From Candidatus Eiseniibacteriota bacterium (lineage in GTDB: Bacteria; Eisenbacteria; RBG-16-71-46; CAIMUX01): a stretch of DNA of 64,000 nt. Location: positions 9,074-73,073 of the forward strand of contig CAIMUX010000086.1 in NCBI GenBank assembly GCA_903844735.1. The letters run 5' to 3'. The notes below the pieces were generated by a model. It saw nothing but the letters and a program-made list of their open reading frames with translations, was not told the DNA's origin and searched no databases. Shown piece after piece: positions 8,335 through 41,028 of the stretch. The position numbers and the translations under genes were made by a program. How positions within the stretch are numbered: the stretch's first letter is position 1; the number at the start of each line of letters is the position of its first letter.

Positions 8335-8359
8335 GTTCGCCGGTTGAGGGAGAAGGCCG

Positions 8360-8785: not shown

Positions 8786-8838
8786 TGTCTACGTCCCGGC
8801 GCCAGGATGACGCCGGCGGGAAGGAGCAGGAGGATACC

Positions 8839-10614: not shown

Positions 10615-12318
10615 TTGGCCGGCGCCAAGGAAGCGGTGCACCCGGGTGGTCCGGGCTGCGGTCATGGAAGGCCGACCGCTTTGGCGCAGATGGAACCCGC
10701 TATGGATGCCACGGAGCCTCGTCCTCGCCACGGGGAGGACGCCGTCGTATGCCCGGACCCGCTCGCGCGCGAGATCTTTGCGCGGATCCTTGGGACGGTC
10801 GCTGCCTGTCTCTATGCCCGCTTTCCCGACGGCTCCCTGCACCCGGTCCATGCCTCCGGCCTGGAACTCGAACCTCGTGGGGCCTGGACTCACGAACTGA
10901 AATCGGCCGCCCCCTGGGGGGCGGCGCCACCCGGCGCGGTGACGGCGCTGGCCGCGTTGCCGCGCCGCGCCGGCTTGCCTGATCCCGATTCGTCGCTGTG
11001 GCTGCGCCCCCTCCGTTGCGGCCGCGACATCGCCGGCGGATTGCTCCTGCGCGTCGCGGGACGAACCGTTCCCGCGGCCCTCCGCCGACGGCTCGATGAT
11101 CCGGTGCATCTGGGTACCCTGACCGCACTCATCGAGTGGAGTCGTGCCGGGATCGAGCTCGAAGCGCTCCGGGGCTTTCGCGAGGCCGTGTCCTCGGCGC
11201 TTCCGTACGGCGTGCTGGTCGTGGACGGGCTCGGTCGCGTCACATGGACTGGAGGCCGTGCCACCGCGATTCTCGGCGTGAGTGCGGAAGAGGCGGCGGG
11301 CAGCGACTGCGCGCGGATCTTCCGGCCGGTGGGCCTGGAGCTGCACCCGATCCTGGAAGGACTGCGCGGGAGGGTTCACTCCGGCGAGATCGTCCTGGCT
11401 CGTGCCGACGGTGAGGAACTGCCGGTTTCGCTGGAAATGGCGCGGCTGCCCGGGCGAGGCGGGCGTAGTCACGGGTTGGTGGTGCTCTTTGCGGATCTGT
11501 CGGAGGAGCGTGTCTTGGAGGAGACCGCGCGGCAGCGCGACCGCCTGGCCGCGCTCGGCGAATTGTCTGCCGGGGTGGCTCACGAGATCCGCAACCCTCT
11601 GACCGGAATCGCCAACTGCGCGCAAGTCCTGCGGGAAGGGATGGAAGAGGAGGACCCTCGCCATCGCTTTCTTCGCATCATCCTCGACGAGACGGCGCGA
11701 CTGAACCGCATCGTGGAGGGGCTTCTTTGCTACGCCCGGCCGAACCGTCCCGACCTGCGCGACACCGTCATGGAGGAGCTCGTGCGTCACGCCATCGACC
11801 TCGTGCGGTCCGGGCTGGAGGCAAACGGGATTCGCGTCGGCTACAAGCTGGGTGGGCGGATCCCGCGGATCTTCGTGGATCCCGCGCAGGTCGAGCAGGT
11901 GCTGCTCAACCTGCTGCGCAACGCCGAGGAGGCGATGCCCTCCGGAGGCGAAATCGTGGTTGCGATCTCGGTGGTGCGGCGGCGACCCCATCGGCGGCGC
12001 GGCCTGGGGCGGCGGGCCGATGACCGGATGCGGGTGCGACCGCGCGATGACGGCCCGCTGGTGCGATTCGTCTCGGTTCGCGTGGCCGACACCGGACCCG
12101 GCATCCCGCGCGAACTTCTCCCGCGGATCTTCAATCCTTTCTATAGCACGCGGAGCAAGGGAACCGGGCTGGGACTTTCCCTTTCGCAATCGATCGTGCG
12201 AGAGCACGGGGGATTCCTCACGGCCCGCTCGGTGGTAGGCAAAGGAACCGTCTTCCATCTGGATCTACCGGTGGAGAGGAGGCAAGGTGAGCGACGGCAG
12301 GACCAGCGACGCGCTTGA
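10615..12318 (+). CDS. Sensor histidine kinase (PAS/GAF-like N-terminus, HisKA, HATPase), FleS/FlrB/NtrB-type
   Basis: H-box 'LSAGVAHEIRNPLTGI', N-box 'LLNLLRNAEEAM', G-boxes 'VADTGPGIP...GTGLGLSLS'. The start is ambiguous (ATG 10690 is an alternative). Confidence 0.8.
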   Translation: MAGAKEAVHPGGPGCGHGRPTALAQMEPAMDATEPRPRHGEDAVVCPDPLAREIFARILGTVAACLYARFPDGSLHPVHASGLELEPRGAWTHELKSAAPWGAAPPGAVTALAALPRRAGLPDPDSSLWLRPLRCGRDIAGGLLLRVAGRTVPAALRRRLDDPVHLGTLTALIEWSRAGIELEALRGFREAVSSALPYGVLVVDGLGRVTWTGGRATAILGVSAEEAAGSDCARIFRPVGLELHPILEGLRGRVHSGEIVLARADGEELPVSLEMARLPGRGGRSHGLVVLFADLSEERVLEETARQRDRLAALGELSAGVAHEIRNPLTGIANCAQVLREGMEEEDPRHRFLRIILDETARLNRIVEGLLCYARPNRPDLRDTVMEELVRHAIDLVRSGLEANGIRVGYKLGGRIPRIFVDPAQVEQVLLNLLRNAEEAMPSGGEIVVAISVVRRRPHRRRGLGRRADDRMRVRPRDDGPLVRFVSVRVADTGPGIPRELLPRIFNPFYSTRSKGTGLGLSLSQSIVREHGGFLTARSVVGKGTVFHLDLPVERRQGERRQDQRRA

Positions 12319-13711
12319 GTACACGCTCATGGTGGTGGACGACGAAGAGTCGATCCGCATCACCCTGGGCGAGGCGCTGTCCAACGAGCGGACCACCGTG
12401 CATACGGCGGGGACCGGTGGCGGCGCCCTCGAAATTCTGGAGCGCGAGCCGGTCGATCTCGTCCTTCTCGATCAGAACTTGAAAGTGTCGGGGGAGAACG
12501 GCATCGAGGTTCTGCGCGAGATTCGGCGTCGTTTCCCCGACACACTGGTCATCATGATGACGGCGTACGGGCGGATCGAAGCAGCGGTGGAGGCGACCAA
12601 GCTGGGCTGCTTCCAGTACATCACCAAGCCACTGGAGATCCCCCAACTACGGCTGCTCATCAAGAGTGCCCTGGCCACCGTCGAGCTACGCAAGGAGGTC
12701 GAGGTCCTGCGCAGCCAGCAGGAACGTGAGTTTGACGGGGAGCGCATCTTCGGCAGCAGTGAGAAGATGAAGGACCTCCTCGATAACGTGAAGAAGATCG
12801 CCCGCAGCGGCACCTCGACCATTCTGATCCGCGGCGACACCGGCGTAGGAAAGGACCTTATCGCCCGGGTCATTCACCAGACCAGCTCCGCCGGCAAGGG
12901 GCCGTTCGTAGTGCTGAATTGCTCGGCGGTGCCGGATAATCTGCTGGAGAGCGAACTCTTCGGCCACGAGCAGGGGGCTTTCACCGATGCGCGTCGCCAC
13001 AAGCGCGGGCTGCTCGAGATGGCCGACCGCGGCACGCTGTTTCTCGACGAGATCGGGGAGATGCCGGCGGGGCTGCAGTCCAAGCTCCTGCGCGTCCTCG
13101 AAACCAAGACGTTCCGCCGACTGGGCTCCACCACCGACATCCGGGTCAATGTTCGCTTCATCGCCGCCACCAACAAGGATCTCTTCCAGGAGGTGGAGGC
13201 GCGCCGCTTTCGAGAGGATCTCTACTACCGCCTCTCGGTGATTCCGGTCTATGTACCGCCGCTGCGCGAGCGGCGCGAGGATATCGGACTCCTCGTGCGG
13301 TATTTCCTCGATCGCTACAACCTGGAGCTGGGGGGGCGCCTGGCCCGTGTGGCGGATACGGCGATGGAGATGCTGGCCGACTACCGCTGGCCGGGAAATG
13401 TCCGCGAATTGCGCAACGTGGTGGAGCGGCTGGTGCTCATGCACCCGGGGCCGGAGGTGCTGCCGGAGGATCTTCCGGAGCAGGTACGGCTGGGAACCGT
13501 CGCGCTCCGTCCGGATGAGGAGAGCGAGGAGGTCGTCATCCGCAGCGAACGGGTGGTTCCTCTGGCGGAACTGGAAAAGGCCGGTATTCGCGACGCCTTG
13601 GCCAAACTCCAAGGGAACAAGACCCGTGCGGCCGAGCTTCTCGGGATCAGCCGTCAGACGCTCCGCACGAAGGTGCGGGAGTACGGGATCGAGTCCATCG
13701 ATACGGAGTGA
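12287..13711 (+). CDS. Sigma-54-dependent response regulator (REC + AAA+ sigma-54 activator + Fis-type HTH), FleR/FlrC-like
   Basis: 'MVVDDEESIR' receiver, Walker A 'GDTGVGKDLIARVIH', GAFTGA 'GAFTDA', 'ESELFGHEQGAFTDA', C-terminal HTH 'LLGISRQTLRTKVREYGI'. GTG start overlaps the kinase stop. Confidence 0.85.
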   Translation: MSDGRTSDALEYTLMVVDDEESIRITLGEALSNERTTVHTAGTGGGALEILEREPVDLVLLDQNLKVSGENGIEVLREIRRRFPDTLVIMMTAYGRIEAAVEATKLGCFQYITKPLEIPQLRLLIKSALATVELRKEVEVLRSQQEREFDGERIFGSSEKMKDLLDNVKKIARSGTSTILIRGDTGVGKDLIARVIHQTSSAGKGPFVVLNCSAVPDNLLESELFGHEQGAFTDARRHKRGLLEMADRGTLFLDEIGEMPAGLQSKLLRVLETKTFRRLGSTTDIRVNVRFIAATNKDLFQEVEARRFREDLYYRLSVIPVYVPPLRERREDIGLLVRYFLDRYNLELGGRLARVADTAMEMLADYRWPGNVRELRNVVERLVLMHPGPEVLPEDLPEQVRLGTVALRPDEESEEVVIRSERVVPLAELEKAGIRDALAKLQGNKTRAAELLGISRQTLRTKVREYGIESIDTE

Positions 13712-15566: not shown

Positions 15567-17636
15567 ATGGTCAGCGAAGGCGGCAAGCATAGTGGGGTCA
15601 GACGGGGCGAGCGTGGTCGACGCATCCTGGAGAGGCCAGCGGGGACTCGCTGCCTGCCGCTTCTCATGGCTTTGCTCCTGGGTCTGGCTCCCGCGGCGGC
15701 GCGCGCCGGGGACATGGAAGGCCCACTCAGCGGGACCCGTCGGCCGGGCGCGCCGTCCGAGGGCGATTACCGGCTGGAACGGATCCGCTTTGAGAACGAC
15801 GGTGAGTGGCTGCGCATGACGATTCCGATCAAGGCGCCGTGGGCGCACTGGACGCTCACCGACCCGCCGCGCATCATCGTCGACCTGGGTCAGACCACGA
15901 GTTTTCTGTCCAAGGCTCCCGGTCTCTACCAGGCCCGACTCGACCGGGGTCCGGTGCGCACCGTGCGGACCAGTCAGTTCCTCTACTCGCCCCTTGACCA
16001 TCGCGTGCGCATTACCCTCGACCTGTCGGAGGTGGTGCCGTACCAAGCACGCCGGGTCGGTGACGAGATCCAGATCCTGATCCCCGACCGCGGCGCGCGC
16101 ACGCCGCGCGCGGTCATGATCGGCCCGGCCGGGATAGCCGGGATCGACGGCGATCCCGCCCTGGCGAACGGGACATCCCCGTCTGCGGCCGGCGGAATCG
16201 CGACCGGCGCGATGATGACGACCCTCGTGCCCCTGTCCCGACTGAGCGCGCCGCGTCCCGATGCTGTGCCGTCCGAGGTCGCCTCAGGGGAGGCTGCGCG
16301 AGCTGACGAAGAGCCGGCGCAGAAGGTCGTGTCCCTCCTGGCGGGGGGCTCGGCCCAGGTGGCCGGGGGTACGGCAGACGGAGCAAACCGTCCGCCGGCG
16401 AGGACGTTGATGGACGCCCTGAGTGAATTCGGCGGGATCGCGGTCGAGCCTGTCGCCGACGACGAGACCGACCCACCCTCTGTGTCCCCATCACTGGGGC
16501 TGGTCTCTCGCGACGGCGACGCGGTGCCCGGCTCGCGTGAGCTCGCACCGTCCCCGACTGACGTCGGGTCGGTCTCCCGCGTCGGTGGAGCCGCGACCGC
16601 GACTTCGCGGTCCACGCGCGCCTTGCCCCCCGCGCGAGCCCGCCTCACCTTCGTGCCTGCCTCCTCTCCGGGCGCCAGCGCCTCGGCGGCTTCCTCTCCC
16701 ACCGCCTCGGTGCGCGAAACGCCGCCCGCGGGGGAGATGGATGGTGAGGGGGCGACCGGTTCCGCTCCGCCGGTGCCCCCCAAAGAACGTAGTGCGGCGC
16801 GTCTGCTGCGCCAGGCCGTGCTCGCCACGCTGCGAGGAGATCTTAAGACGGCCGGGGCGACGGCAGAACGGGCGCACCGTTTCTATGCGGGAACCGCGTC
16901 GGGTGATCAGTGCGGTTTCCTGGCCCGGGAGATCTTCCTCCTCCTGAAGAGACCCGCCGACGCAGGCCGGTCGGCAGCACTGCCCGCGTTGCCCTCGCTT
17001 CCCGACACCACGCGGTTGCCGCGCGCCCTCTATCTGTCCTTTGTCGACCAGTACCGGCGATCAGGTGACCTGGCGGCGGTCGACCGGGTGCTGGGCCAGT
17101 GGGGTCCGGCCTACAGTCCCCTGCCGGGGTTGGGAGCGCTGCAGTATGCGATGGGCGAGGCGTTCCTCCGCGCCGGGGACGCGGCCGCCGCCGAGGAACA
17201 CCTGCGCATGGTGCCTCCGGGCGACTCGCTCCACGTGCCCGCGCTTCTGCTGATCGCCCTGGTGCAGGATCGCCGCGGCGAGCGTGAGTCGGCCCTGGAG
17301 ACCTACCGCCAGGTGACCGCCCTGGGGCCGGGGCCGTACCAGGCGCGAGGACTGGCGCGTACGGCCGATCTGGAGTTCCAGCTCGGACGCGTCCACGAAG
17401 CCCTCGCCTCCTACGAACGCCTCCTGCAATCGAGCCCTCCGCGCGACGAGGAGGTTTGGGCGGTATATCAGGCCGGCAACTGCCACTTGCTGCTCGGCGA
17501 GTCTACGCCGGCCAAGGAGCGCTATGAGACCGTGGCGAAGCTGTGGCCGCAGTCGTTCTGGGCTCCCTTCGCCAAGGAACGGCTGGAGGAAATGACGTGG
17601 CGTGCCCAGTGGGCGGCCGGGAACGGTGTGCGATGA
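15567..17636 (+). CDS. Secreted AMIN-domain protein with Pro/Ala/Ser-rich linker and C-terminal TPR repeats
   Basis: Signal peptide 'LPLLMALLLGLAPAAARA'. AMIN-like 'YRLERIRFENDGEWLRMTIPI...PPRIIVDLGQT...RVRITLDL'. C-terminal TPR-like 'AMGEAFLRAGDAAAAEEHLRMV...ALETYRQVTALGPGPYQARGLARTADLEFQLGRVHEALASYERLL'. Confidence 0.55.
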   Translation: MVSEGGKHSGVRRGERGRRILERPAGTRCLPLLMALLLGLAPAAARAGDMEGPLSGTRRPGAPSEGDYRLERIRFENDGEWLRMTIPIKAPWAHWTLTDPPRIIVDLGQTTSFLSKAPGLYQARLDRGPVRTVRTSQFLYSPLDHRVRITLDLSEVVPYQARRVGDEIQILIPDRGARTPRAVMIGPAGIAGIDGDPALANGTSPSAAGGIATGAMMTTLVPLSRLSAPRPDAVPSEVASGEAARADEEPAQKVVSLLAGGSAQVAGGTADGANRPPARTLMDALSEFGGIAVEPVADDETDPPSVSPSLGLVSRDGDAVPGSRELAPSPTDVGSVSRVGGAATATSRSTRALPPARARLTFVPASSPGASASAASSPTASVRETPPAGEMDGEGATGSAPPVPPKERSAARLLRQAVLATLRGDLKTAGATAERAHRFYAGTASGDQCGFLAREIFLLLKRPADAGRSAALPALPSLPDTTRLPRALYLSFVDQYRRSGDLAAVDRVLGQWGPAYSPLPGLGALQYAMGEAFLRAGDAAAAEEHLRMVPPGDSLHVPALLLIALVQDRRGERESALETYRQVTALGPGPYQARGLARTADLEFQLGRVHEALASYERLLQSSPPRDEEVWAVYQAGNCHLLLGESTPAKERYETVAKLWPQSFWAPFAKERLEEMTWRAQWAAGNGVR

Positions 17637-19101
17637 GCCGTGCGACGAAAGCACCGGCCGACCTATTGGGGGGAACGCCTCTCCATCCGAGACGCACGCC
17701 CCCTTATACGAAGGGCACGGCTCCCGCAAGCGGGGGGGCGCCGGGCGGGAAGGCCGTGGCACACGGATCTGCCTCGCCGGTGAGGCGTCAAACAAACGCC
17801 CGAACGGCGTGCGATTCGGGAGAACTCGACTCGCTGCGGCGCCTTCTCGAAGGGCGCGAGCAGCTTTGTCTCATCCTCGAGGAACTGCTGGAGGCGTCCA
17901 CGGACGGAGTGGTCGCGCTCGATTTCCGTGGGCGCGTGGTCCATGTCTCCGGGGCGCTTTTCGGTTGGGCTGCGGGCCGGGATGGTGCGGCGAATCCGCC
18001 GGGTCCGCGGGGCATAGCAACGGCGTCTCCGGATCAGTGCCTCCCTCGTTCGGTGCGCCAGCGGTTGCGCCGCGAGGCAGCGGGGATCGAGGCGGGCGAG
18101 ACGATTCGCTTCGAGCTCCCCTGGTCGCGCCCTGACCGCGGCACGGAACTCTATCGCGTCGTCGCCACCGCGGGCACCGATCTGGCAGGCAGTCCCGCTC
18201 TCGCGAGGCGCAGCCCCGCCGAGATAGGCCAGGGTCGCGCCGAAACAGGACGCGGTCCCGCCGAGACAGGACACGGCGGACGCCTCCTGACCCTTTTTGC
18301 GTTCTTCGACCGCACGCGCGAAGCGACGGTGGAGCGCGAGCTCGCCGAGGCGAGAAACTTGGCGGCCCTCGGGCAGATGGCGGCCACAGTGGCTCACGAA
18401 CTTCGCAACCCGCTTGGAGCCATTCAGGGATTTGCCGGCCTGTTGAGCCGCGACCTAGTCGGGCAGCCCGCCCTCTTGCGGCAGGCGGAGCGGATCCTTC
18501 GCGGGGTGGAAGGGGCCAACCGCATCGTAAGCGACCTGCTTGAGTATACGCATCCGGTGGCGCCGCGGCGGGAGTCGGTGTCGCTTTCGATTCTGCTGGC
18601 GGAAAGCATCGCAGCGTGGCGTGCTTCGACACCGTCGCCTGGCCGGACGGAGGTTGACCTGTGCGTCGACCCCGATCTTCCCGATTGTTTCTGCGACGCG
18701 CGGCTCGTGCAGCAGGCGCTGCAAAACCTCTACGCCAACGCGGTTCAGGCGATGGGCGAGGAAGGGGGCACGCTCTTCGTGCGGGCGCGGGCCGCGGGAC
18801 CCGCGGGACGGCCCGACCGGTTGCGCGTCGTGGTGCGCGATACCGGATGCGGACTGGGCGCCGACGAAGTAGCGCGGATCTTCCAACCTTTCTACACCAC
18901 GCGCCCCGGCGGAACCGGCCTGGGGTTACCGCTGGTGCGGCGCATCGTGGAAGCGCATGGCGGCCATGTCCACGTGGTGAGTGCGCCGGGTCGCGGGACT
19001 TCCGTGGTCATTGACCTGCCGGCGGCGAGCCTCGAGTTGCCGAGCGGCCGGGACGAACCCGGCGAGGAGGATGTCGCGGGGGTCTGGGAGGAGAGAGCGG
19101 T

Positions 19102-19105
<4 letters not shown>
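17633..19105 (+). CDS. Sensor histidine kinase (second, paralogous), cytoplasmic-type
   Basis: 'LAALGQMAATVAHELRNPLGAIQGFAGLL', 'LQNLYANAVQAM', 'VVRDTGCGLGADEVARIFQPFYTTRPGGTGLGLPLVRRIVEAHGG'. ATG 17633 overlaps the upstream stop (ATGA). Confidence 0.8.
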
Positions 19106-20535
<1,430 letters not shown>

Positions 20536-22911: not shown

Positions 22912-23154
22912 ATGACCCATGCTTTCATGTTTCTCGCCTTCCTGGGGGTCGCGACGGCCCGGGCTCAGGAAAACGGGACGATCGTGGCCTGGGGGGCGAA
23001 CTCGTTCGGCCAGTGCAACGTGCCGGGGCCCGACACCGGCTCCGTGGCGATTGCGACGGGTGGTCAGGACGCCCTGGGTCTCAGGATTCCGGCGCATGGG
23101 GCCTGTTGTCACACCGATGGTTCCTGCGCCTACGGGATCCAGGACAGACGATGA
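22912..23154 (+). CDS. Small secreted RCC1-repeat-like protein (possible fragment)
   Basis: '[40 protein letters not shown]' contains a signal peptide plus one RCC1-like 'WGxNxxGQ' motif. Only 80 aa; its stop overlaps the icmF ATG (ATGA). Weak. Confidence 0.2.
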
Positions 23155-26100
23155 CCCAATCCAACGAGCGATATCAGCTTCGTCACCAGGTGCGCGTCGT
23201 CACCGCGACCAGCCTCTTCGACGGTCATGACGCGGCGATCAACATCATGCGGCGCCTGATCCAGCAGGGCGGAGCCGAGGTCATCCACCTGGGCCACAAT
23301 CGCTCGGTGGCCGAGATTGTTGAGGCCGCTATCGAAGAGGACGCCCAGGCTGTGGCTGTTTCTTCGTATCAGGGTGGCCACAACGAGTTTTTCCGCTATA
23401 TGGTCGACATGCTGAGGGAGCGCGGCGCGGGGCACATCCGTGTCTTCGGTGGCGGCGGCGGTGTCATCCGTCCCGACGAGATCCGCGAGCTTGAAGCGTA
23501 TGGCGTCGAGCGCATCTACGATCCCGAGGACGGCCGCAAGCTAGGCCTTTCGGGCATGATCGACGATCTCCTGGAGCGCGCCGACTTCCACACCATCAGC
23601 GTTCCGGGCTCCGACGATCCGAGCACCAAGGGCGCGGCCATGCCCGACCCGAGCCGGCTCACGGTCGACGACCACGCCGCCGTGGCCCGGTTGATCACCC
23701 TGACCGAGATGGGTGCCGGCGCCTACGACTTCGTCTCCGCGGCGGTCCGCGAGCGGGCGGCGAAAAGTCAAGCCCCGGTCGTTGGCATCACCGGCACCGG
23801 CGGCGCGGGCAAGAGCTCGCTCGTCGACGAATTGGTGCGCCGATTACGTCACGACCATCCCGACAAGCGCCTGGCCGTGCTCTCCGCCGATCCTTCCAAG
23901 CGTCGCACCGGCGGGGCCCTGCTCGGCGACCGCATTCGCATGAACGCCATCCACGGCTCGGACGTTTACATGCGCTCTCTGGCCACCCGCGGCTCGCGCA
24001 CCGAATTGCCCGACACTATCCGCGACGCCATCGATGTCGTTAAGGCCGCCGGCTTCGATCTCATCCTCGTCGAGACCTCGGGCATCGGTCAGGGCGATAC
24101 CGCGGTCGTCGACATCTCCGACGTGGCCGTCTACGTCATGACCGCCGAATTCGGCGCCCCGACCCAGCTTGAGAAGATCGATATGATCGACTACGCCGAC
24201 CTCATTTCGATCAACAAATTCGAACGTAAGGGCTCCGACGACGCGCTGCGCGAGGTGCGCCGCCAGTTGCGCCGAGCCAGGAACGCATTCGATGTCGAGC
24301 TCGAAAACCTGCCCGTCTACGGCACCATCGCCTCCAAGTTCAACGACGAGGGTGTCAACGGCCTTTACGCCGGTCTGTGCGAGATCCTCGCCAGGAAAAA
24401 GGACGCGGGCTTTGTCTGCAAGTTGCCGGCCTCGGTCATCTCCCGCACATCCAGCCAGAAGTCGCTCATCCCGGTGGATCGCAACCGCTATCTCGGCGAG
24501 ATCGCGGACGCGGTCCGGGGCTACAAAGCCAGGGCCGCCACCGAGGCCGAGCTCGCCCGTCAACGTCAGCACCTTACCTGCGCCGCCGAGTTGCTCGACG
24601 GTTCGGCTCGCGAGGCCGCGCTGCTGAAGCGCGCTGAGATCGACAAGCGGCTCTCGCCCGCAAGCCTTAGCCTCATCGAAGGCTGGCAGTGCCTGCGCGA
24701 CGCCTACGCCGGCGATACCTTCACCTACAAGGTGCGCGACAAGGAATTCCATTTGAACATCAGCTCCGAGACGCTGGCCGGAACGAGGATCCCACTCGTT
24801 GTCGTACCCGACCTCAAGGACGATGGCGACAAGCTCAGCTACCTGATGCTCGAAAACGTCCCCGGCGCCTTCCCCTTCACCGGCGGCGTCTTCCCCTTCA
24901 AGCGCGATGGCGAGGATCCCAAGCGCCAATTCGCCGGCGAGGGCGGCCCGGTCAAGACCAACCGCCGCTTCCACTACCTGACGCGCAACGACGACGCGAA
25001 GCGCCTCTCCACCGCCTTCGACTCGGTGACACTCTACGGCGAGGATCCGGCACCGCGTCCCGACATCCTAGGCAAGGTCGGCGACTCGGGCGTCTCGATC
25101 TGTTCCCTCGAGGACATAAAGAAACTCTACGCCGGGTTCGATCTGCTCCACCCCGGCACGTCGGTTTCGATGACCATCAACGGGCCGGCGCCGATCATGC
25201 TCGCCTTCTTTTTCAACGCTGCCATCGATCAGCAGGTCGATCTCTTCGTTGCCGATCACGGCCGCGCCCCGAGTCCCGGGGAACACGCCATCATCCGCGC
25301 CAAGACCTTGTCCACGGTGCGCGGCACGGTGCAGGCCGACATCCTCAAGGAAGATCAGGCCCAGAACACTTGCATCTTCTCCACCGAGTTCGCGCTTCGG
25401 ATGATGGGCGATGTCCAGGAGTTCTTCATCGAGAACGACGTGCACAACTACTATTCGGTTTCGATTTCCGGCTACCACATCGCCGAGGCCGGGGCGAACC
25501 CCATCTCCCAGACGGCCTTCACCCTGGCCAACGGCTTCACCTACGTGGAGTACTTCCTCTCGCGCGGCTTTCCCATCGACTCGTTCGCCCCCAACCTCTC
25601 GTTCTTCTTTTCCAACGGCATGGACGCCGAGTACACGGTTATCGGCCGCGTGGCGCGCCGCATCTTCGCCGTGGCGATGCGCGAGAAGTACGGCGCGGCC
25701 GAGCGCAGCCAGAAGCTCAAGTACCACATCCAGACATCGGGCCGCTCGCTGCATGCCCAGGAGATCCAGTTCAACGATATCCGTACCACGTTGCAGGCGT
25801 TGCTCGCGTTCTACGACAACTGCAATTCGCTGCACACCAACAGCTACGACGAGGCGATCACCACTCCCACCGAGGAGTCGGTGCGCCGCGCCATGGCGAT
25901 TCAGCTCATCATCCTGCGCGAGTTCGGTCTCACCAAGAACGAGAACCCGTGGCAGGGCTCGTACGTGGTCGCGGAGCTGACCGAGTTGGTCGAAGAGGCG
26001 ATCCTCTGCGAGTTCGAGCGGCTCTCCGAGCGCGGCGGCGTGCTCGGCGCCATGGAGACCCAGTACCAGCGCGGCAAGATCCAGGACGAATCGATGCTCT

Positions 26101-26423
26101 ACGAGCACCGCAAGCACACCGGTGAGTTGCCGGTGATCGGCGTCAACACCTACCTTGCCGAGAACTCCGAGAACCTCATCCCGAAGAACGTGGAACTGCG
26201 CCGCGCCACCGACGAGGAGAAGCACGAGCAGATCGACAACGTCGCGGGCCTGCAAGAGCGCAACGCCGAGCGGATCGCCGCCTCTCTCGCCGAACTGCAA
26301 CGCGTGGCACTCACCGGCGGCAACACTTTCGCCCAGATGATGGAAACCGCCCGCTACGCATCCCTCGGCCAGATATCGAGCGCCCTGTACAAAGTCGGCG
26401 GCCAGTACCGACGCAGCATGTGA
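23151..26423 (+). CDS. icmF: Fused isobutyryl-CoA mutase IcmF (B12-binding domain + MeaB-like GTPase + acyl-CoA mutase catalytic domain)
   Basis: N-terminal B12-binding '[23 protein letters not shown]...[13 protein letters not shown]', MeaB P-loop '[18 protein letters not shown]', mutase-domain blocks ('...[17 protein letters not shown]', '[15 protein letters not shown]'). 1090 aa, consistent with IcmF. Confidence 0.85.
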
Positions 26424-32997: not shown

Positions 32998-33437
32998 GGA
33001 AGTTCCGCTTCGCTCTGGAAGGGATCGAGCGGTTGCGCGCGCGCGACGTCCGCACGCACGAGGTGGAGTTGGCGAAGACGCGGGACGCTCTGGCGGAAGC
33101 GGAGAGAGCGCGGGAAGGAGCCGCGACGGCGCTGAGGCGCTCGGTGACGCTGGCTCCGACGGGGACCGTCGTACATGTGCGGCACCTCCTTGAGCTGGAC
33201 GCGGAGCGGCGTCGACTCACCGGCGAACTGCTGCGCGAGGAGACGCGGCTGGAGGGCTCCGGTCAGGCCATGGAGTCGGAGAGGATGAGACTCCTTGAAG
33301 CGCGGCGCGGGGCGCGCGCCGTGGAGATGCTGCGCGGGCGCCGGTATCTGGAGTTCCTTCAGGCTGTGCGGCACGAGGAACAGCAGATGACCGACGAAGT
33401 GGCGGCCCGGATCGTGCGGGAGTCGAGGGCGGCGTGA
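32994..33437 (+). CDS. fliJ: Flagellar export protein FliJ
   Basis: 147-aa coiled-coil protein 'MRKFRFALEGIERLRARDVRTHEVELAKTRDALAEAER...' directly after fliI. ATG overlaps the fliI stop. Confidence 0.65.
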   Translation: MRKFRFALEGIERLRARDVRTHEVELAKTRDALAEAERAREGAATALRRSVTLAPTGTVVHVRHLLELDAERRRLTGELLREETRLEGSGQAMESERMRLLEARRGARAVEMLRGRRYLEFLQAVRHEEQQMTDEVAARIVRESRAA

Positions 33438-34117
33438 CGCGGCGCGGGCAAGCGGGGAAAAGTGCCCTTGGCTCGCTCCTCGGACTTCTCTTCGGGGGAG
33501 GTGCGGTATTGGTCGTGGCCGCGCTCTTCATGACCGGCCTCGCCCAGCGGGAGATCCTGCCGCGAGTGCGGGCGCGGGCCGAGCGGGCGATGGAGCGCGC
33601 GACCTCGGCGGTGAAGCCGGGGAGTAAGGCGCCGGCCGGTGATGCAGCCGGGGCCAAAGGTGGCGCCGTTGGCGCAGGCATGGGCGGTCTCACGGCCGGA
33701 GTGGCCGACTCGGCGGGTGCGGCCGGTGGGTCCCGCGATTCGATTCAGGCTCTGTCCGCTCAGATGGATACACAGAAGTCCTTCTTGGCGCAGCGCGAGG
33801 CGGACCTGAAGCGCATGCGGGCGGGGATCGACAGTCTGCAACGCAAGGCGGATGTCGTCGATGACACCGAGCTGAAGCGTCAGGCCAAGCTCTTCGCCGC
33901 CATGAAAGCCGAAGAGGCGGCGCTCGTGTTAGGGGCGATGGACGACGTCACGCTGGCGTTGCTGCTCGATGCCATGAACGCCAAGGCGGCCGCCAAGGTG
34001 ATGGCCAGGCTGGACGCTGGACGCGTGGCCCGACTGGCAAGTCGAGCGGTGCATAAAGGGGAAATGACCGGCGCGGTCACGCTTGCCGGGCAGGAAGCCG
34101 GGCCCGCCGCGCGCTGA
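33434..34117 (+). CDS. MotE/YlxF-like flagellar protein (MgtE_N-like repeats)
   Basis: N-terminal TM. C-terminal 'AKLFAAMKAEEAALVLGAMDDVTLALLLDAMNAKAAAKVMARLDAGRVARL' shows the paired MgtE_N-like repeats typical of MotE/YlxF. Same position as ylxF in the Bacillus fla/che operon. Confidence 0.5.
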   Translation: MTRRGQAGKSALGSLLGLLFGGGAVLVVAALFMTGLAQREILPRVRARAERAMERATSAVKPGSKAPAGDAAGAKGGAVGAGMGGLTAGVADSAGAAGGSRDSIQALSAQMDTQKSFLAQREADLKRMRAGIDSLQRKADVVDDTELKRQAKLFAAMKAEEAALVLGAMDDVTLALLLDAMNAKAAAKVMARLDAGRVARLASRAVHKGEMTGAVTLAGQEAGPAAR

Positions 34118-34164
34118 GCGGTGGGGAAAGGCGCCGAACGCGGCGCCGAACCAGGAAGGAACGC

Positions 34165-37100
34165 ATGAATCCGCTGCCGTCTACGTTGACGCCGGCCCTG
34201 CCGGGTGCGGCTGCCGATCCGGGACTGCGGGGACGATTCCCCGAGGCTCCCGACGGCGGCGGCGCGCGCGTCCAAGACCGGGACGGGTTCGAGGCTGCAC
34301 TGCAGGCGGCGAGCGTCGCCGGTTCGTTCGTTCTCACTCGCGGGCCCGCGTTGTTTTCGCGGGTGAAGCAAATGGAAGACACGCTGGAGACCGCGGCGCC
34401 GGCGACGGCAAGCAATGTCGAACCGAGGGCGTTTCTAGCGCCGATGGAGCCCCTTTCTTCTTTGGGTGCCCCGAGGACCCTTGGCTCGAGCGGAGCGCCC
34501 GGAGGTCCGGCGACCGGGACCGATGCCGAGGTCGTCGAGGTAGCGGGCGCTGCGACGGTATCTGGAACGGTCTCGGTGCCTCATGGCTCGTCGGGAGTGG
34601 CCGGGTCCTCATCCACTGTCTTGACCTCGCCGGCGGCATTGACCTCGCCCGCGGCATTGACCTCGCCGGCGGCATTGACCTCGCCCGCGGCATTGACCTC
34701 GCCCGCGGCATTGACCTCGCCCGCGGCATTGACCTCGCCGGCCGCCGTGCGCACGCCGCGCATCGCCGCCTCCACGGTCGGTGCGGCGGGTGCGCTCCCG
34801 ACGGCCCGGGGTGCGCGCGCGACCCGGGTCGTGGATGGCTCTCCCTCGGCAGGGAACGTCTCGAACGGCGAGCGGTTGGGCGACGTCGGGGGACGGATCA
34901 TCGAGGCCTCCGGACGTGTTGTCGGCCTCTTTGACCTGGAGGACGGCGGGGCGCTGCCGGCGGCTGGTTCGGTCCCCGCTGGTGTAGGCGCGGGAATCGC
35001 CACGCCGGGGGAGGCGACCTCCGGAGCTGTTCCGCGTGCCGCCGGCGTAGTGGCGGGCGCGAAGAGCGCCCCCGCCGGCGATGCGGTTGTGTCCATGGCT
35101 CCTGGATCCGGGATCGCTTCCAGTCCGTCGTCCGCGAGGGTGTCCGAAACGACGAGGTCCGGCGCGGCGATGACCTCTCTCTCCAGCTCGGCTTCCGGTT
35201 CCGCAGGAAGTCGGGCGATGCCGGTCTCCAACCCGGTCTTGGCTGTCGGCATGGTTGCCGGCCCTTCGGTGGAGGGTGCGCCACCAACCCCGGTGTCGGT
35301 CCCCGCTTCCGGTTCGAATGCGGGTCAGACGAGGGGTGGCGCTGCCAAGGGCGCGGCGCCGGTACCGGTTTCCCCATCGGGCTCGGTTAGTGATCAGACG
35401 ACAATCGGTCCTCTGCCGGTCTCCGCGCGCTCTGCCGCACGGGCTTCCACACTAGGTTCGGCTCTCGGGCAAATGACCAATGCCCCGATGACAGCCTCCG
35501 TGCCAGGACCCGCACCAACACCCCTACCGCCCTCCGCGACAGCCTTCGGACGCGCCGAGGAATCGGGCTCGACTGGCGGAGAGAGAGTGCGGAGTGCGAC
35601 GACAGCCCCGGTAGCGGTTGCGATGCCGGTATCGACCTGCACGTCGACTCCTGAACCGTTGGTGAGTGGCCCGGGGCCGGGCGCCGCGCCGGTTTCCGCG
35701 CCGGGCTCTGCGCCGGGCTCTGCGCCGTGCTCCGCGTCGGTCTCAGCGCCGCTCCCCGCGCCGGTCTCCGTACCGGTTTCCCAGCCGATCTCTGTGCCGG
35801 CCTCCGCGCCGGTTCCCGTATCAGGCTCAACTCCTGATCAGACAGCCCGGAGTGCGGCGCCGGCCTTGGCCTTCGACTCGGCTGCCGGTCAAATGATCAG
35901 CGGCCCGATCCCGGTCTCTGTGCCGGCCTCGGCGCCGATCCGCTCGCCGGTTTCCGCGTCGGTCTCAGCGCCGGTCCCCGCGCCGGCGTCCAGGTCGGTC
36001 TCCGCGCCGATCTCCGTACCGATCTCCGTACCGGTCTCCGTACCGGTTTCCCAGCCGATCTCTGTGCCGGCCTCCGCGCCAGTTTCCGTATCAGGCTCAA
36101 CTCCTGATCAGACAGCCCGGAGTGCGGCGCCGGCCTTGGCGTTCGACTCGGCTGCCGGTCAAATGATCAGCGGCCCGATCCCGGTCTCTGTGCCGGCCTC
36201 GGCGCCGATCCGCTCGCCGGTTTCCGCGTCGGTCTCCGCGCCGGTCCCCGCGCCGGCTTCCAGGTCGGTCTCCGCGCCGGTCTTCGTACCGGTTTCCCAT
36301 CCGATCTCTGTGCCTGCCTCCGCGTCAGTTCCCGTATCAGGCTCAACTCCTGATCAGACAGCCCGGAGTGCGGCGCCGGCCTTGGCGTTCGACTCGGCTG
36401 CCGGTCAACGAATCAGCGGTCCGATGCCGGTCTCTGTGCCATCCTCCGCGCCGATCCCCTCGCCGATCCCCGGGCCGGCTTTCGCTTCGGTCTCAGTGCC
36501 GATCCCTGCGCCGATCCCCGCGCCAGTCTCCCAGCCGATCTCTGTGCCGGCCTCTGCGCCAGTCCCCATATCAGACTCAACTTTTGATCAGACAGTCCGG
36601 AGTGCGGCGCCGGTCTTGGCATTCGAACCTGCTCCCGGTCAGTTGGCCGGCGACCCGATGCCGGTTTCCGTGCCGGCCTCTGCGGCGGTCTCCTTGCCGG
36701 TCTTGGCAGGGATTCCCACGCGAACTTCCGTGCTAGCCTCGGCATCGATCCCCGCGCGGTCTTCCTTGTCAGCCTCGGTGCCGACTTCCTTGCCGGATTC
36801 CACGCCGAGTTCGGTGGCGGCCTCCGCACCGAACTCACGATTGGTTCCCCCATCCGGCTCGGCTCCTGCTCAGACGGTGCAGAGCGTGGCGCCGACTCCG
36901 GTGTCGACTTCGATACCGGCCTCTGCGTCCGATTCGATTTCTGTTCCGATGACGGGCGGCCCGCTGCCGGTGTCCGCGACGGCCTCTCCACCGGCTTCCG
37001 CCTCGGTTTTCGCGCCGGCCTTCGCGTCGTCCGCCGCGCCGACTTCCGTGCCGAACCCGGTGTCGATTTCATCGCGATCTTCGGTGGCGCACTCAACTCC

Positions 37101-38463
37101 TGATCAGACAACGTCGAGTGCGACGATAGCCCCGGCGGCCGTTTCGGTTCCGATTTCGGCGTCAGGCTCGATTCCCGCGCAGATGACGGGCATCGGGACT
37201 CCGGTCTCCGTGCCGGTCTCCGTGCCGATCACAGCGCCAAGTGCGGTTCCCGGTCAGACAGTGGAGAGTTCGGCGAAGGTTCCGGTGGCTGTTTCGATGC
37301 CTGCGTCCAAGGTAACTCGCGGGCACACTGCGCGAAGTGCTGTGACGGCCCCGGCCGTCGGCGCGACGCCGGCCCCCGCGTACGGTTCGGGCCCCGATCT
37401 GTTGACGAGCGGCCCGATGCAGGCAGCTGGACCGGTCTTCGCGCCGTCCGCCGTGCCGGCATCCGTCCGGGCCTCCGTGCCGGCCCCTGAGCCGTTTTCT
37501 GCGCCGGCCGCCGAGGTCAAAGCGGTGTTCGCGCAGGGTGGGTCCGGTACAGGGAGCGCGCCGGCCGAAGCAACAGGCCCAGGCGTGACGCTGAGCCGTG
37601 GCGAACGCCCAGCGAGTCTGCCCACCGCGATTAACGTGGCTCGGACAGTGCGGTCTTCCCAAGCTTCTGTCGGGACCAGCGAGGCGACCCCTGTGTCCGA
37701 GAACCCCCTGTTCCCGAACCCGATGCCTCAGGTCCGTGCCGAAGTCTCCTCGGTGGGGGAACCCAGCGCCGGCGGTGCATCTTTGACCCCGGGCTCTTCG
37801 GCGATAGCCGCGGCAGTGCATCTACCGGCGATTCAGACCTCCACGCCGAGCGCGTCGACGGCTCCTCTGGGGCGAGTGCTCGAGTTGGCCAACCCGGTTG
37901 CGCCCCCGAATCTACCGACGGCTGTGCCCCACGCCATCAAGCTCGCCCTGCGCGAGGGGGTCGGCGAGGTGCGGATCCGCCTCTGGCCACCGGAGCTGGG
38001 TGGCATCCTGGTTCGGCTGCGGGTCAACGGGACCGAGGTCACCGCGCGGATCGAGGCCGAGCGGACGGACGTGCGGGGAATGCTTGAGTCGATGCGATCG
38101 GACCTCGGGCGGGGGATGCAGGAGGCCGGGCTGAAACTGACGCGATTCGAGATCGGTCCGGCACGCCCGAACGAATCATTGCGGGCCTTGGAGACAGTGA
38201 TCCCGGCGAGCGCGGCCTCGCAGGGCGGTGGGGGCGGGACCCCGGATCGCCAGGGTCAAGGCGCCCCGGCGGGAAATCTCGGGACGTCCGGCGGCTTCAA
38301 TCAGGGCGATCCCGGCCCACGCGGCGAGCACGCCGCCGGCGGACGCGCCGGAAGCGGGCGGGAAGGAACGGGCCTAGCGCCCGAGAATCGTAGGGAGAGA
38401 AGCGAGGCGGGCCTTGTGGTTCGCCATGTGCGCGGCGAAGCGGCGATTGACGCCTGGGCCTGA
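34165..38463 (+). CDS. fliK: Giant hook-length control protein FliK (1432 aa) with expanded repetitive Pro/Ala/Ser/Val-rich ruler region
   Basis: C-terminal '[66 protein letters not shown]' is the Flg_hook / FliK C-terminal domain. It lies between ylxF-like and flgD as in Bacillus. The central roughly 1000 aa is low-complexity tandem repeat. Confidence 0.75.
34621..34746 (+). repeat. 18-nt perfect microsatellite x7 inside fliK encoding (ALTSPA)7
   Basis: 'ttgacctcgccggcggca / ttgacctcgcccgcggca' alternate seven times. The encoded peptide is '[18 protein letters not shown]...'. Confidence 0.85.
35771..36700 (+). repeat. Tandem array of ~240-270-nt near-identical repeats (about 3.5 copies) inside fliK; more diverged copies extend from ~35390 to ~37240
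   Basis: Units begin at 35771, 36041, 36287 and ~36527 ('taccggtttcccagccgatctctgtgccggcctccgcgcc...'). Encoded unit is '...[78 protein letters not shown]...'. Confidence 0.8.
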
Positions 38464-38489: not shown

Positions 38490-39155
38490 ATGAACATTAG
38501 CAGCACGACAGCGGCCACAGCCGCGACCGCCACCACAGGCGTGCAGGGAACGTCGCGCGAGGCGCTGGGAAAGGACGACTTCCTCAAGCTCCTGATCACG
38601 CAATTGCAAAACCAGGACCCGCTGTCACCCATGGACAACAGTCAGTTTCTGGCCCAGATGGCACAGTTCAGCTCGTTGGAGCAGATGCAAAACCTGAACG
38701 CCAGTTTCGACGAGTCGATGCTGATCTCGCAGTCCCTGAGCAATTCGTCCGCCGCGGGTTTCATCGGGCGGCATGTCCGAGCCGCCGGTGATGGCGTGAC
38801 TCTCGGTACCACCGGGTCGGTGGAGCTGGGGTACTTCCTGCCATCGGATGCCGCGACAGTCACCTTGACGGTGCTGGACGAACAGGGTCGCGAGGTGCGC
38901 ACGCTGACAGCCGATGAGACCACCGCGGGCGCGCACAGACTCGAGTGGGACGGGGCCGACCTGGACGGTCGTCGGGTTGCCGCGGGCTCGTACACCTTCG
39001 AGGTCTCAGCCAAGGACGCGGACGGGCTCGACGTCAGCGCGACCTCCGTCGTCACTGGCCTGGTGGACGGGATCACCTTCCAGAACGGCAGTGCCTACCT
39101 GCTGGTGGACGGCCGCGAGGTTCCGCTCTCTGAAGTGCTCGAGGTCTATCAATGA
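38490..39155 (+). CDS. flgD: Flagellar hook capping protein FlgD (with FlgD Ig-like domain)
   Basis: '[44 protein letters not shown]' is the FlgD N-terminal signature. C-terminal '[49 protein letters not shown]' is a FlgD Ig-like domain. Confidence 0.85.
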
Positions 39156-39327
39156 GACACGGCATGACCCGAAGGAACCAGAGGAACAGCGGGCACCGCG
39201 CCCGGTCGCCGTGTGGCCTCCGGGTCGATCTCCGGGAGGCGAATGCCCCCCGGGACGGGCCGGTCCGCTCGGGCTGACCAGACGGCAGGAAGACGGCTAC
39301 CAACACGGCGCAGGAGGAAAAATCGCC

Positions 39328-41028
39328 ATGATGCGTTCACTTTTTTCGGGTGTTTCCGGATTGGCCAACAACATGGTCCGCATGGACGTGATCGGGAACA
39401 ATGTGGCCAACGTCAACACCATCGCGTACAAGGCCTCTCGGGTCACCTTCGAGGAGACGATGACCCAGATGCTCAAGGGATCGACTGCCCCCATGGGAAC
39501 GTTGGGCGGCTCCAACCCCACACAAGTGGGGACGGGTGCTCGACTCGGCACCATCGACAGTATTTTTACCCAGGGAAGTATGGAGGCGACCGGGATCGAC
39601 ACCGACCTCGGTATCCAGGGACGTGCCTTTTTCGTGGTCTCCGATGGGACCAACCAGTTCTATTCCCGGTCCGGCTCGTTCCAGCTCGACGGCCGCGGCA
39701 ACCTCGTCAATCCTGCAAACGGATTCACCCTCCAGGGATTCAGCTACAACCGCGTCACCGACCAATACGACAACCTGCCGGAGGCGATCAAGCTGCCGCT
39801 CGGCGAGGTGGAGCCGGCCAAGGCAACCGGCGTACTCTCGTTCCGCGGCAACTTCGACGCCGACTCGGAACCGCGGGGGACGCGTACGGGCTCGGCCGTC
39901 CTTTGGGGCGGGACCGGCAGCCCGGTCGCCATGGACACGCTGCTGGATGACATGAAGGCCGACCCGGGCGGCGTCCTCGACCTGCTTACGGTGGGTGACA
40001 CCATCGCCTACAGCGCCACCGTCGGTGGCAACCCGATTGGCGGCAACCTGACAGTTGACGCTGTCTCGACGATGGGCGACCTCGTGACTGCGATCCAGAC
40101 CTCTCTCAACTCGGTTTCTGGGGTAGCGGGGATCACTGTGAGCTTGGACAGCAACGGGCGCATCCAGGTTGCCACGCCGGACGGCCTGGGCAAGCGCGCG
40201 GAGGTGACCGGGCTTGTCATTCAGGCGGAGGATCCGACTTTGGTCCCGCGCGATGACTTCAATGGTCTCGTCGCCCTGACGGATACGCAGTCGGCGCGCG
40301 ACGCCAGCGTCTTCATCGATGAAAGCACCGTCTATGACTCCCTCGGCTTCAGTCACGTCATTCGGACCGAGTTCACTCGTCTCCTCGGGGCCAATCAGTT
40401 CACCTGGGCAGCGACGGTTGATGACGGCACGACCCCGATCCTGCAAGGCGGCACGGGCAAAGTGACCTTCAACGGCGACGGCTCCTTCAACGGGCTCTTT
40501 TTCGATGCCGCGGGCGATGTCATCCCGACCAAGCTGTCGATCTCCCCGACCACCGGTGCAAAGACGCCGCTGGAGGTGGAGCTCGACCCCGGAGTTCCCG
40601 GTGGCTTCGCCGGCATGACCCTCGTCCGCGCGCCGGCCACCCTCGCGGCAACCAGTGATGGCTTCAGCAAGGGGACCGCGACCGACTTCCGCATCGATCG
40701 AACCGGCACGGTGATCAGCATCTTCTCGAACGGCGTGACCCGACCCGTGGCGAGGGTCGCTCTTTCCGAGTTCGTCAACCCTTCCGGCCTAGTGCGTTAC
40801 GGGGACAACCTGTTCCAGGCCTCGACCAACTCGGGCAAGGCGCTGGTGGGGCAGGCCGGCGGAGCGGTGGAGGCGACGGTTTTCAGTGGCTCGCTGGAGC
40901 AGTCGAATGTCGATCTCGCACGGGAGTTCACCAACATGATCCTTGCACAGCGGGGATTTCAAGCGAGTGCTCGGGTCATCACCACGAGTGATGAGGTTCT
41001 CACCGAGCTGATCAACCTGAAGCGGTAA
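39328..41028 (+). CDS. flgE: Flagellar hook protein FlgE
   Basis: 'MMRSLFSGVSGLANNMVRMDVIGNNVANVNTIAYKASRVTFEE' and C-terminal 'EQSNVDLAREFTNMILAQRGFQASARVITTSDEVLTELINLKR'. RBS CAGGAGGAAAAA. Confidence 0.9.
   Translation: MMRSLFSGVSGLANNMVRMDVIGNNVANVNTIAYKASRVTFEETMTQMLKGSTAPMGTLGGSNPTQVGTGARLGTIDSIFTQGSMEATGIDTDLGIQGRAFFVVSDGTNQFYSRSGSFQLDGRGNLVNPANGFTLQGFSYNRVTDQYDNLPEAIKLPLGEVEPAKATGVLSFRGNFDADSEPRGTRTGSAVLWGGTGSPVAMDTLLDDMKADPGGVLDLLTVGDTIAYSATVGGNPIGGNLTVDAVSTMGDLVTAIQTSLNSVSGVAGITVSLDSNGRIQVATPDGLGKRAEVTGLVIQAEDPTLVPRDDFNGLVALTDTQSARDASVFIDESTVYDSLGFSHVIRTEFTRLLGANQFTWAATVDDGTTPILQGGTGKVTFNGDGSFNGLFFDAAGDVIPTKLSISPTTGAKTPLEVELDPGVPGGFAGMTLVRAPATLAATSDGFSKGTATDFRIDRTGTVISIFSNGVTRPVARVALSEFVNPSGLVRYGDNLFQASTNSGKALVGQAGGAVEATVFSGSLEQSNVDLAREFTNMILAQRGFQASARVITTSDEVLTELINLKR

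Follow-up and report, generated by a model that had tools for sequence, protein, structure and literature searches.

A giant FliK with a modular, tandemly repeated spacer, a probable length-variable ruler, in a Candidatus Eiseniibacteriota genome

FliK is a textbook molecular ruler, and to our knowledge few studies have looked at how its length varies in nature. This study concerns the fliK gene in a stretch of 64,000 nucleotides (nt) from a Candidatus Eiseniibacteriota bacterium (contig CAIMUX010000086.1, positions 9,074 to 73,073; hereafter the window). The middle of this gene is built from tandem repeats. Its closest described counterparts are FliK of Salmonella enterica and YscP of the Yersinia injectisome.

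Salmonella FliK is composed of 405 amino acids (aa) and is exported at intervals while the hook grows. Its N-terminal part (FliKN) serves as both ruler and export signal and binds FlgD and FlgE, the following proline-rich linker is disordered, and the C-terminal part (FliKC) switches FlhB (PMC6972891). Passage through an export channel of about 13 Å requires an unfolded chain (PMC5288503). In engineered Salmonella FliK variants of 310–785 aa, spacer residues lengthen the hook by 0.2 nm each; length is tightly controlled between 363 and 785 aa, with hooks of 42–135 nm (PMC6126814). YscP contains repeats of 14, 25 and 46 aa that vary in number among Y. enterocolitica strains (PMC3469391). In the part of that article that cites Wagner et al. 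2009, YscP is given as 452, 515 or 538 aa depending on repeat number, and needle length is described as linear with protein length (PMC3469391).

The fliK gene of the window encodes a protein of 1432 aa, 3.5 times longer than Salmonella FliK. The protein belongs to the FliK family but is built unusually, as a giant modular ruler that undergoes concerted evolution and that automatic annotation misses except for its C-terminal tail. The repeats probably encode the middle, ruler segment of this protein, which would make it a modular and length-variable molecular ruler. We assign this reading a probability of about 0.72.

The repeat-bearing gene is fliK, as identified by a Flg_hook domain, a T3S4 fold and its place beside flgD and flgE. 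The C-terminal domain matches Pfam family PF02120 (Flg_hook) with an E-value of 7.4e-15 and 55 bits, against a cut-off of 29.8, and its profile matches the structure of the FliK C-terminal domain in the PDB (2RRL, E-value 2.1e-5). The last 232 residues were modeled with AlphaFold2 (AF2) from five sequences. The model contains an α/β core at residues 1238–1332 with predicted local distance difference test (pLDDT) values of 74–89; its overall confidence is moderate, with a mean pLDDT of 59.5, due to the disordered flanks. A Foldseek search of the PDB with this model returns only two matches with E-values below 1e-3, namely 2RRL and the switch domain of PscP (5CUK, target TM-score 0.63). This FliK has no match in NCBIfam, and phmmer finds no match to the whole protein in the PDB. 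The genes are arranged in the order fliF-fliG-fliH-fliI-fliJ-(MgtE_N-like)-fliK-flgD-flgE-fliL-fliM-fliN-fliO-fliP, where the placement of fliL, fliM, fliN, fliO and fliP was read from an identical contig of another assembly. An earlier note, made from the letters of the window alone (the sequence-only reading), had placed the repeats in the middle of fliK. The Flg_hook domain and the position between fliJ and flgD/flgE confirm that assignment. The locus is flagellar and is not an injectisome locus; functionally the protein is YscP-like, but it is no orthologue of YscP.

This FliK and Salmonella FliK share a three-part layout, and their C-terminal domains match in both sequence and predicted fold. 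They are also alike in having a disordered Gly-rich tail, a Pro-rich unstructured segment before the switch domain, and an operon position by flgD/flgE (PMC6972891). The C-terminal tail here is analogous to FliKCT of Salmonella (PMC6972891). Outside the C-terminal domain, the two proteins display no sequence similarity. The ruler of Salmonella FliK spans about 200 aa and is partly helical and non-repetitive, whereas the ruler here spans about 1100 aa, is rich in Pro, Ala, Ser and Val, and consists of tandem 73–94-aa modules with nested 4-aa sub-repeats.

YscP resembles this FliK in being a T3S4-domain ruler with tandem repeats in its spacer, and the Foldseek match PscP is its homologue. However, the protein here is flagellar, and its modules, which have no sequence relation to the YscP repeats, are longer, present in higher number, and Pro-rich instead of helical. 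YscP varies at the strain level, whereas FliK here differs in length between related species (879–1432 aa), with one complete allele for the species of the window. The engineered Salmonella variants form the experimental basis for the mechanism proposed below. They are artificial, carry helical YscP inserts and reach at most 785 aa, whereas the natural FliK here is almost twice that length.

The repeat array was delineated by three approaches. Tandem Repeats Finder (TRF) reports a 270-nt period at 35761–36291 (2.0 copies, 97% matches, score 1013), overlapping 234-nt periods at 36236–36757 (74–75% matches), and many 12-nt sub-periods. A repeat search of the window finds four 300-nt copies at spacings of 270, 246 and 234 nt, as well as a 56-nt core that occurs seven times, at 35826, 36096, 36342, 36576, 36858, 37092 and 37311. 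A hidden Markov model (HMM) built from the units detects four strong module copies at residues 533–849 (E-values of 1e-36 to 1e-38), a significant upstream copy at residues 398–458 (independent E-value 6.7e-6), and weaker downstream copies at residues 873–950, 958–1025 and 1038–1099. Overall, the core units are preceded by the significant copy and one or two weak ones, and followed by two or three diverged copies. In the whole window, the only tandem repeats scoring at least 150 are this module array and an 18-nt array, both within fliK. The longest exact repeats measure 95 nt (35872/36142) and 77 nt (36086/36332), which excludes a chance origin of the array. Rfam and tRNA scans of the window give no match to an RNA element behind the repeats.

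The repeat units are 270, 246, 234, 282, 234 and 219 nt long, every length being divisible by 3. The four core units are designated U1–U4 (Table 1). U1 and U2 share 97.6–98% DNA identity and differ by five to six substitutions and one 24-nt indel; four of their codon differences are synonymous and one is non-synonymous. U3 is 88% identical to U1 and 86% to U2 over the whole unit, and 92–93% over the first 180 nt. U4 shares about 78% DNA identity with the other core units, or 82% over the core. Substitutions between units are skewed to codon position 3, and every indel has a length divisible by 3.

These data support most of what the sequence-only reading had claimed for the array. Its tandem periodicity is recovered by TRF, by the spaced 300-nt copies and by the seven 56-nt cores. 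Its estimate of about seven copies of an ~85-aa motif across 35390–37240, with diverged copies on both sides, is a fair description in light of the HMM, and the motif it quoted matches. A DNA identity above 90% was claimed for all four units. This value holds for U1 and U2 in full and for the core of U3 (92–93%), but not for U4 (~78%).

A phase-variable on/off switch was considered and rejected. The periods of 12, 18, 234, 246, 270 and 282 nt are all multiples of 3, and slippage would therefore alter the length of the protein but not its reading frame.

An Ala/Ser/Gly/Val-rich stretch at residues ~193–380 is followed by the module array at residues ~380–1100. The array contains 19% Ser, 18% Ala, 18% Pro and 12% Val, with only 1.6% aromatic and 6% charged residues, and its prolines are mostly two or four residues apart. 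It comprises about eight copies of a 73–94-aa module, each composed of a conserved core of ~45 aa and a linker. The linker is built from P-x-S-x tetrapeptides encoded by 12-nt sub-repeats of variable copy number. Variation in linker copy number accounts for length differences of 12, 24 or 36 nt between modules. An AF2 model of four modules has a mean pLDDT of 37 and contains no helix or strand element, apart from a few isolated single-residue strand marks. The spacer is thus predicted to fit an unstructured chain.

The module cores may alternatively be short binding motifs or domains that fold on binding to FlgD, FlgE or a chaperone, in which case the array would have been selected for the number of sites. 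The cores of ~45 aa are about 50% identical between species (SG, T.RSA, GQ, GP, VS.P.S) while the linkers vary freely, and small pLDDT bumps (~52) recur at the core of successive units in the four-module model. A precedent is the binding of FlgD and FlgE by Salmonella FliKN (PMC6972891). However, no fold is predicted for the modules at a pLDDT of 37, and the middle regions of three relatives (L046, L049 and L001) are largely or wholly different yet presumably functional. The conservation of the cores could also reflect recent common descent and homogenisation alone. In addition, a profile of the repeat unit finds no match among 1.84 billion representative proteins. Judged from this search, the module is neither a known nor a widespread domain, although the lack of protein calls for this region also hides it from the databases. 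Taken together, selection for binding sites is very unlikely, and an unstructured ruler remains the preferred reading of the spacer.

The full-length reading frame contains no stop in 1432 codons, whereas each of the five other frames contains 14–37 stops. In L046 this frame likewise runs open for about 1350 codons, and in L043 for at least 1219 codons, where the contig ends. A different picture emerges from public gene calls (NCBI/ENA, JGI/IMG and Logan). For this gene and its relatives, they contain only C-terminal fragments of 179–261 aa, plus one of 442 aa at a contig edge; such fragment calls were seen for window positions 37693–38463 and for L043, L045, L046, L050 and L051. One of them, P0001, comprises 256 aa and is 100% identical to the C-terminal part of FliK. 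JGI/IMG calls this fliK at 179 aa; the calls for relatives are of 231–261 aa. Public callers also set antisense open reading frames (ORFs) of 54–253 aa over the repeat zone. Antisense genes over the repeats were rejected, since these ORFs have no family match and none exceeds 280 codons.

The full-length product is equally absent from protein databases. An exact look-up of the 1432-aa sequence gives no record. A full-length search of a collection of 5.8 billion proteins returns nothing, its 8000 word-sharing candidates being swamped by low-complexity words. The same collection yields matches when searched with the C-terminal part alone or the N-terminal part alone.

The composition of the repeat zone is atypical. 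GC content at the third codon position (GC3) is 0.62–0.78, versus 0.79–0.86 in neighbouring genes, and GC content at the second position (GC2) is 0.68–0.75. GC2 is raised to about the level of GC3 by the codons for Pro, Ala and Ser. Coding capacity was therefore judged not by codon-position GC but by how many stops each frame holds, whether the frame stays open in relatives, the phase of indels and the pattern of substitutions. The atypical composition is probably the reason why gene finders fail on fliK.

If the public annotation were right, FliK would start at GTG 37693 and have only 256 aa, and the upstream 3.5 kb would be non-coding or contain other genes such as the antisense ORFs. All public sources agree in calling only products of 179–261 aa together with antisense ORFs in the repeat zone, the full-length protein is missing from the protein collection, and a GAGG motif lies 8 nt before the GTG. 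Nevertheless, 1432 open codons at 68% GC are far beyond chance when the other frames each hold 14–37 stops, and the frame stays open in relatives whose DNA has diverged beyond alignability. The N-terminus is conserved and a Shine-Dalgarno site precedes the ATG at 34165. Substitutions favour codon position 3, indels come only in multiples of 3, and the antisense ORFs lack family matches. Salmonella FliK depends on its N-terminal part for export and as a ruler (PMC6972891), and a 256-aa FliK would lack this part. The FliKs of 39 comparison genomes all have at least 247 aa and typically ~460 aa. A 256-aa FliK is hence highly improbable. The real fliK ORFs in this organism and its relatives encode 1200–1432 aa, and the fragment calls and antisense ORFs are spurious.

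The comparison genomes were recovered via FlgD. FliK encoded upstream of flgD in these 39 other genomes is 247–788 aa long, typically ~460 aa, and matches PF02120 in 39 of 39 cases. FliK in the clade of the window measures 879, ~1210, ~1340, at least 1219, and 1432 aa. Set against the other genomes, these lengths indicate that a giant FliK is a trait of this clade. The relatives L043, L046, L049 and L001, all uncultured and of about 67% GC, have the same operon, conserved N- and C-termini and very long middles rich in Pro, Ala and Ser.

The nearest genome record, L001, is an uncultured metagenome-assembled genome whose FlgD is 74% identical to that of the window and whose FliK is 879 aa long. 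Its fliK contains, at 8354–8961, an unrelated family of 72-nt (24-aa) repeats with the motif DATPKLL..AARE.AP..., indicating that separate branches of the clade have rebuilt the ruler region from distinct repeats. The antisense frame of fliK in L001 is also fully open, as a 1007-aa ORF.

Closer relatives were reached by protein searches with the C-terminal domain, and their C-terminal parts are 66–81% identical to this FliK. L043 (81% identical) possesses at least eight homologous modules and 282-nt repeats at 90% identity. It has the same nested 12-nt sub-repeat as the window, encoding P-T/A-S-V tetrapeptides, in ~28–60 tandem copies at 186–932. This number is far above that of the window, and linker length is thus highly variable between relatives. 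L046 (66% identical) contains a complete ORF of ~1340 aa with degenerate modules. The flanks of fliK in L049 are 86% identical to the window, and its 2.86-kb middle is unalignable to the corresponding 3.53 kb here. The middles of both L046 and L049 are degenerate and lack long near-identical repeats. Two scans of metagenome contigs, one with a single protein and the other with an alignment, found no further relatives or alleles.

Many flagellar genes of L049 are split by frameshifts, with fliF in three pieces and fliI in two. The contig spans fliK but gives no reliable protein sequence for it. Contig naming and the frameshift-fragmented genes suggest that L049 is an unpolished long-read assembly.

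Comparison with L043 reveals separate homogenisation of the modules in the two genomes. The four core units share a mean of 77% protein identity among themselves, and the L043 units share 72%. Between the core four and the homologous L043 units, the mean is 50% and the maximum 58%. The four core units also have in common an 8-residue deletion that is found neither in the flanking units of the window nor in any L043 unit. At the DNA level, U1 and U2 differ at ~2% of bases, versus 20–23% between the window organism and L043 in the unique 3′ part of the gene. Because identity is higher within than between genomes and the 8-aa deletion is derived, amplification or homogenisation would have taken place after the lineages split.

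The sequence comparison therefore supports recent amplification or homogenisation of the array in this lineage. Recent expansion or homogenisation had been proposed from the high DNA identity alone, and it is now substantiated by the contrast with the L043 units (77% versus 50%) and by the shared deletion. The identity pattern is a mosaic of near-identical cores and diverged linkers. Such a pattern is compatible with cores undergoing unequal crossing-over or gene conversion and linkers undergoing slippage.

The array is also a site where assemblies break: five others, from this organism or its nearest relatives, are interrupted within the fliK repeats or shortly ahead of them. Contigs 99.9% identical to this one come from the samples ERZ1426741, ERZ27313514 and ERR12084952. 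L048, from the same organism (99.98% identical), ends at window position ~34561–34565, about 56 nt upstream of the 18-nt array. The 95-nt exact repeat contains the start (~36189) of a 10.5-kb contig that carries an identical C-terminal fragment, and the 77-nt exact repeat contains the start (36379) of L050 (99.94% identical, same organism). Contigs of relatives (L043, L044, L045 and L051) likewise start inside the array, L043 at a 127-nt exact repeat. The warning that this region is assembly-prone is thus justified, with breaks in three other assemblies of the same organism and four contigs of relatives. The accompanying doubt about copy number stands insofar as the number derives from a single contig. 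It is weakened by the longest exact repeat being only 95 nt and by the units being distinguishable, and the number has not been shown to be wrong.

An assembly artefact would mean that the array has been collapsed, expanded or made chimeric, so that neither the 4 + 4 copies nor the 1432 aa exist in the real genome. The failure of the other assemblies of the organism (at least 99.9% identical) to pass through fliK is in keeping with such an artefact, as are the contigs of relatives that begin within the array. However, the longest exact repeat of 95 nt is shorter than 150-nt reads and than k-mers of 127 or 141. Substitutions tell the units apart, as do indels of 24, 12 and 36 nt, and the frame is open across all junctions. 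Independently assembled relatives also have arrays and FliKs of 1200–1350 aa, one of them on a contig suggestive of long-read assembly. An artefact is therefore unlikely. Copy number is resolvable in principle, because the 95-nt repeat is shorter than common reads and maximum k-mer sizes and the units are distinguishable.

The similarities to Salmonella FliK and YscP suggest how a modular ruler could operate. The conserved N-terminal region shares the motifs LPG..AD.G..GR.P and GFEAAL.AAS.AG with L046, L001 and L049, and similarity is lost past residue ~57, a pattern in keeping with a functional N-terminus. Its similarity to Salmonella FliKN is undetectable. By analogy, this short N-terminus would carry the export signal and contact the hook and hook cap. 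The long Pro/Ala/Ser/Val-rich spacer, which has no predicted structure, would be the ruler, and the C-terminal T3S4 domain would turn FlhB from hook-type to filament-type export. Blocks of codons would be gained or lost in frame when modules or 12-nt sub-repeats recombine unequally or slip. At 0.2 nm per residue, each module would shift the measured rod-plus-hook distance by ~16–19 nm, or by more if the Pro-rich chain is extended. Gain or loss of module copies would thus probably change hook length. A linear extrapolation to 1432 aa gives hooks of ~260 nm, versus 55 nm in Salmonella. The locus would then serve as a tuning element for hook length, not as an on/off switch. That the protein is secreted, that its spacer extends and that hook length responds are inferences from these characterised systems.

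Several points weigh against a length-variable ruler. Measurements of the linear relation stop at 785 aa and used helical YscP inserts (PMC6126814). A preprint argues that FliK limits the maximal hook length and is not a strict ruler (10.1101/2020.03.25.007062). Long hooks impaired swimming and bundle stability in peritrichous Salmonella (PMC6126814), and a ~260-nm hook would accordingly need a different lifestyle or flagellar arrangement. At the level of the protein, low AF2 confidence in a single-sequence run is weak evidence for disorder. At the level of the gene, codon-position GC is ambiguous in the repeat zone, and composition alone does not single out the frame. Copy number rests on one short-read contig, since every other assembly breaks in fliK.

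The FliKs of this clade are two to three times the usual size, and their modular spacers under concerted evolution are the flagellar counterpart of the repeat variation in Yersinia YscP. If the linear ruler relation is true, exceptionally long hooks are expected; if not, this FliK is a natural counter-example. It is conceivable, albeit doubtful, that the clade builds length-controlled hooks of ~250–400 nm, several times longer than any characterised, which would be tuned by ~16–30 nm per module and ~1 nm per 4-aa sub-repeat, or else that the hooks are normal and the spacer breaks the linear ruler relation, with the cores possibly acting as iterated contact sites for the hook or hook cap. Normal-length hooks despite a FliK of 1432 aa would favour 'terminator' or entropic models. 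Either outcome makes the ruler-versus-terminator question testable with natural alleles.

A second implication concerns databases. FliK length and the continuity of the flagellar operon are systematically mis-recorded in such high-GC lineages, because gene calls give C-terminal fragments and spurious antisense ORFs and short-read contigs break in fliK. The main value of the locus lies in offering a natural test of the ruler model and a warning on annotation and assembly.

The features of fliK are listed in Table 1. The 18-nt array, in the N-terminal third of FliK, has no equivalent in the relatives L046, L001 and L049.

Table 1. Coordinates of features of fliK in the window.
Feature	Coordinates	Strand	Basis or remark
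Full-length fliK coding sequence, 1432 aa + stop	34165..38463	+	Open frame, Flg_hook, frame open in relatives
Shine-Dalgarno-like AGGAAGGA, 4 nt upstream of ATG 34165	34153..34160	+	Read from sequence
Conserved N-terminal region, aa 1–57	34165..34335	+	Aligns with L046, L001, L049
Second in-frame tandem array, 18 nt × 6.6 copies, (LTSPAA)n	34621..34739	+	TRF, 97% matches, score 224
Diverged upstream repeat unit (aa 398–458)	35356..35538	+	HMM of units and alignment
Repeat unit U1, 90 aa	35761..36030	+	TRF, repeat search, HMM
Repeat unit U2, 82 aa, ~98% to U1, without 24 nt of linker	36031..36276	+	
Repeat unit U3, 78 aa, core 92–93% to U1/U2, linker diverged	36277..36510	+	
Repeat unit U4, 94 aa, ~78% DNA identity to U1–U3	36511..36792	+	
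Two diverged downstream units (aa 873–950, 958–1025), retaining the 8-aa segment lost by U1–U4	36793..37239	+	
Internal GTG used as start in public calls (P0001, 256 aa)	37693..37695	+	Probably not the true start
C-terminal FliK switch domain (T3S4, Flg_hook), aa 1258–1335	37936..38169	+	Pfam PF02120, 2RRL, AF2
Gly/Ala/Arg-rich C-terminal tail, aa 1341–1432, predicted disordered, ending in conserved AIDAWA	38185..38460	+	Composition, pLDDT <50

Four observations concern the neighbouring genes. A 227-aa gene between fliJ and fliK (33434–34117) has a borderline match to MgtE_N (25.8 bits against a cut-off of 25.9). It matches the spirochaete collar protein FlbB very weakly (18 bits against a cut-off of 110), and FlbB identity is not confirmed. 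Its position is that of ylxF in Bacillus-type fla operons.

Downstream of fliK, flgE (38914–41028) appears as a 704-aa frame in the mechanical ORF list, versus 566 aa on identical contigs, where it starts ~170 nt after flgD. The 5′ part of the listed 704-aa ORF is therefore an over-extension overlapping flgD.

Upstream of the flagellar operon lie two sigma-54-dependent response regulators and a histidine kinase (12287–13711, 17543–19105 and 19102–20535), which may be flagellar regulators similar to FlrBC/FleSR. Just upstream of the flagellar cluster, 23013–26423 encodes a 1136-aa fusion of a B12-binding domain, a MeaB GTPase and a methylmalonyl-CoA-mutase domain, resembling IcmF.

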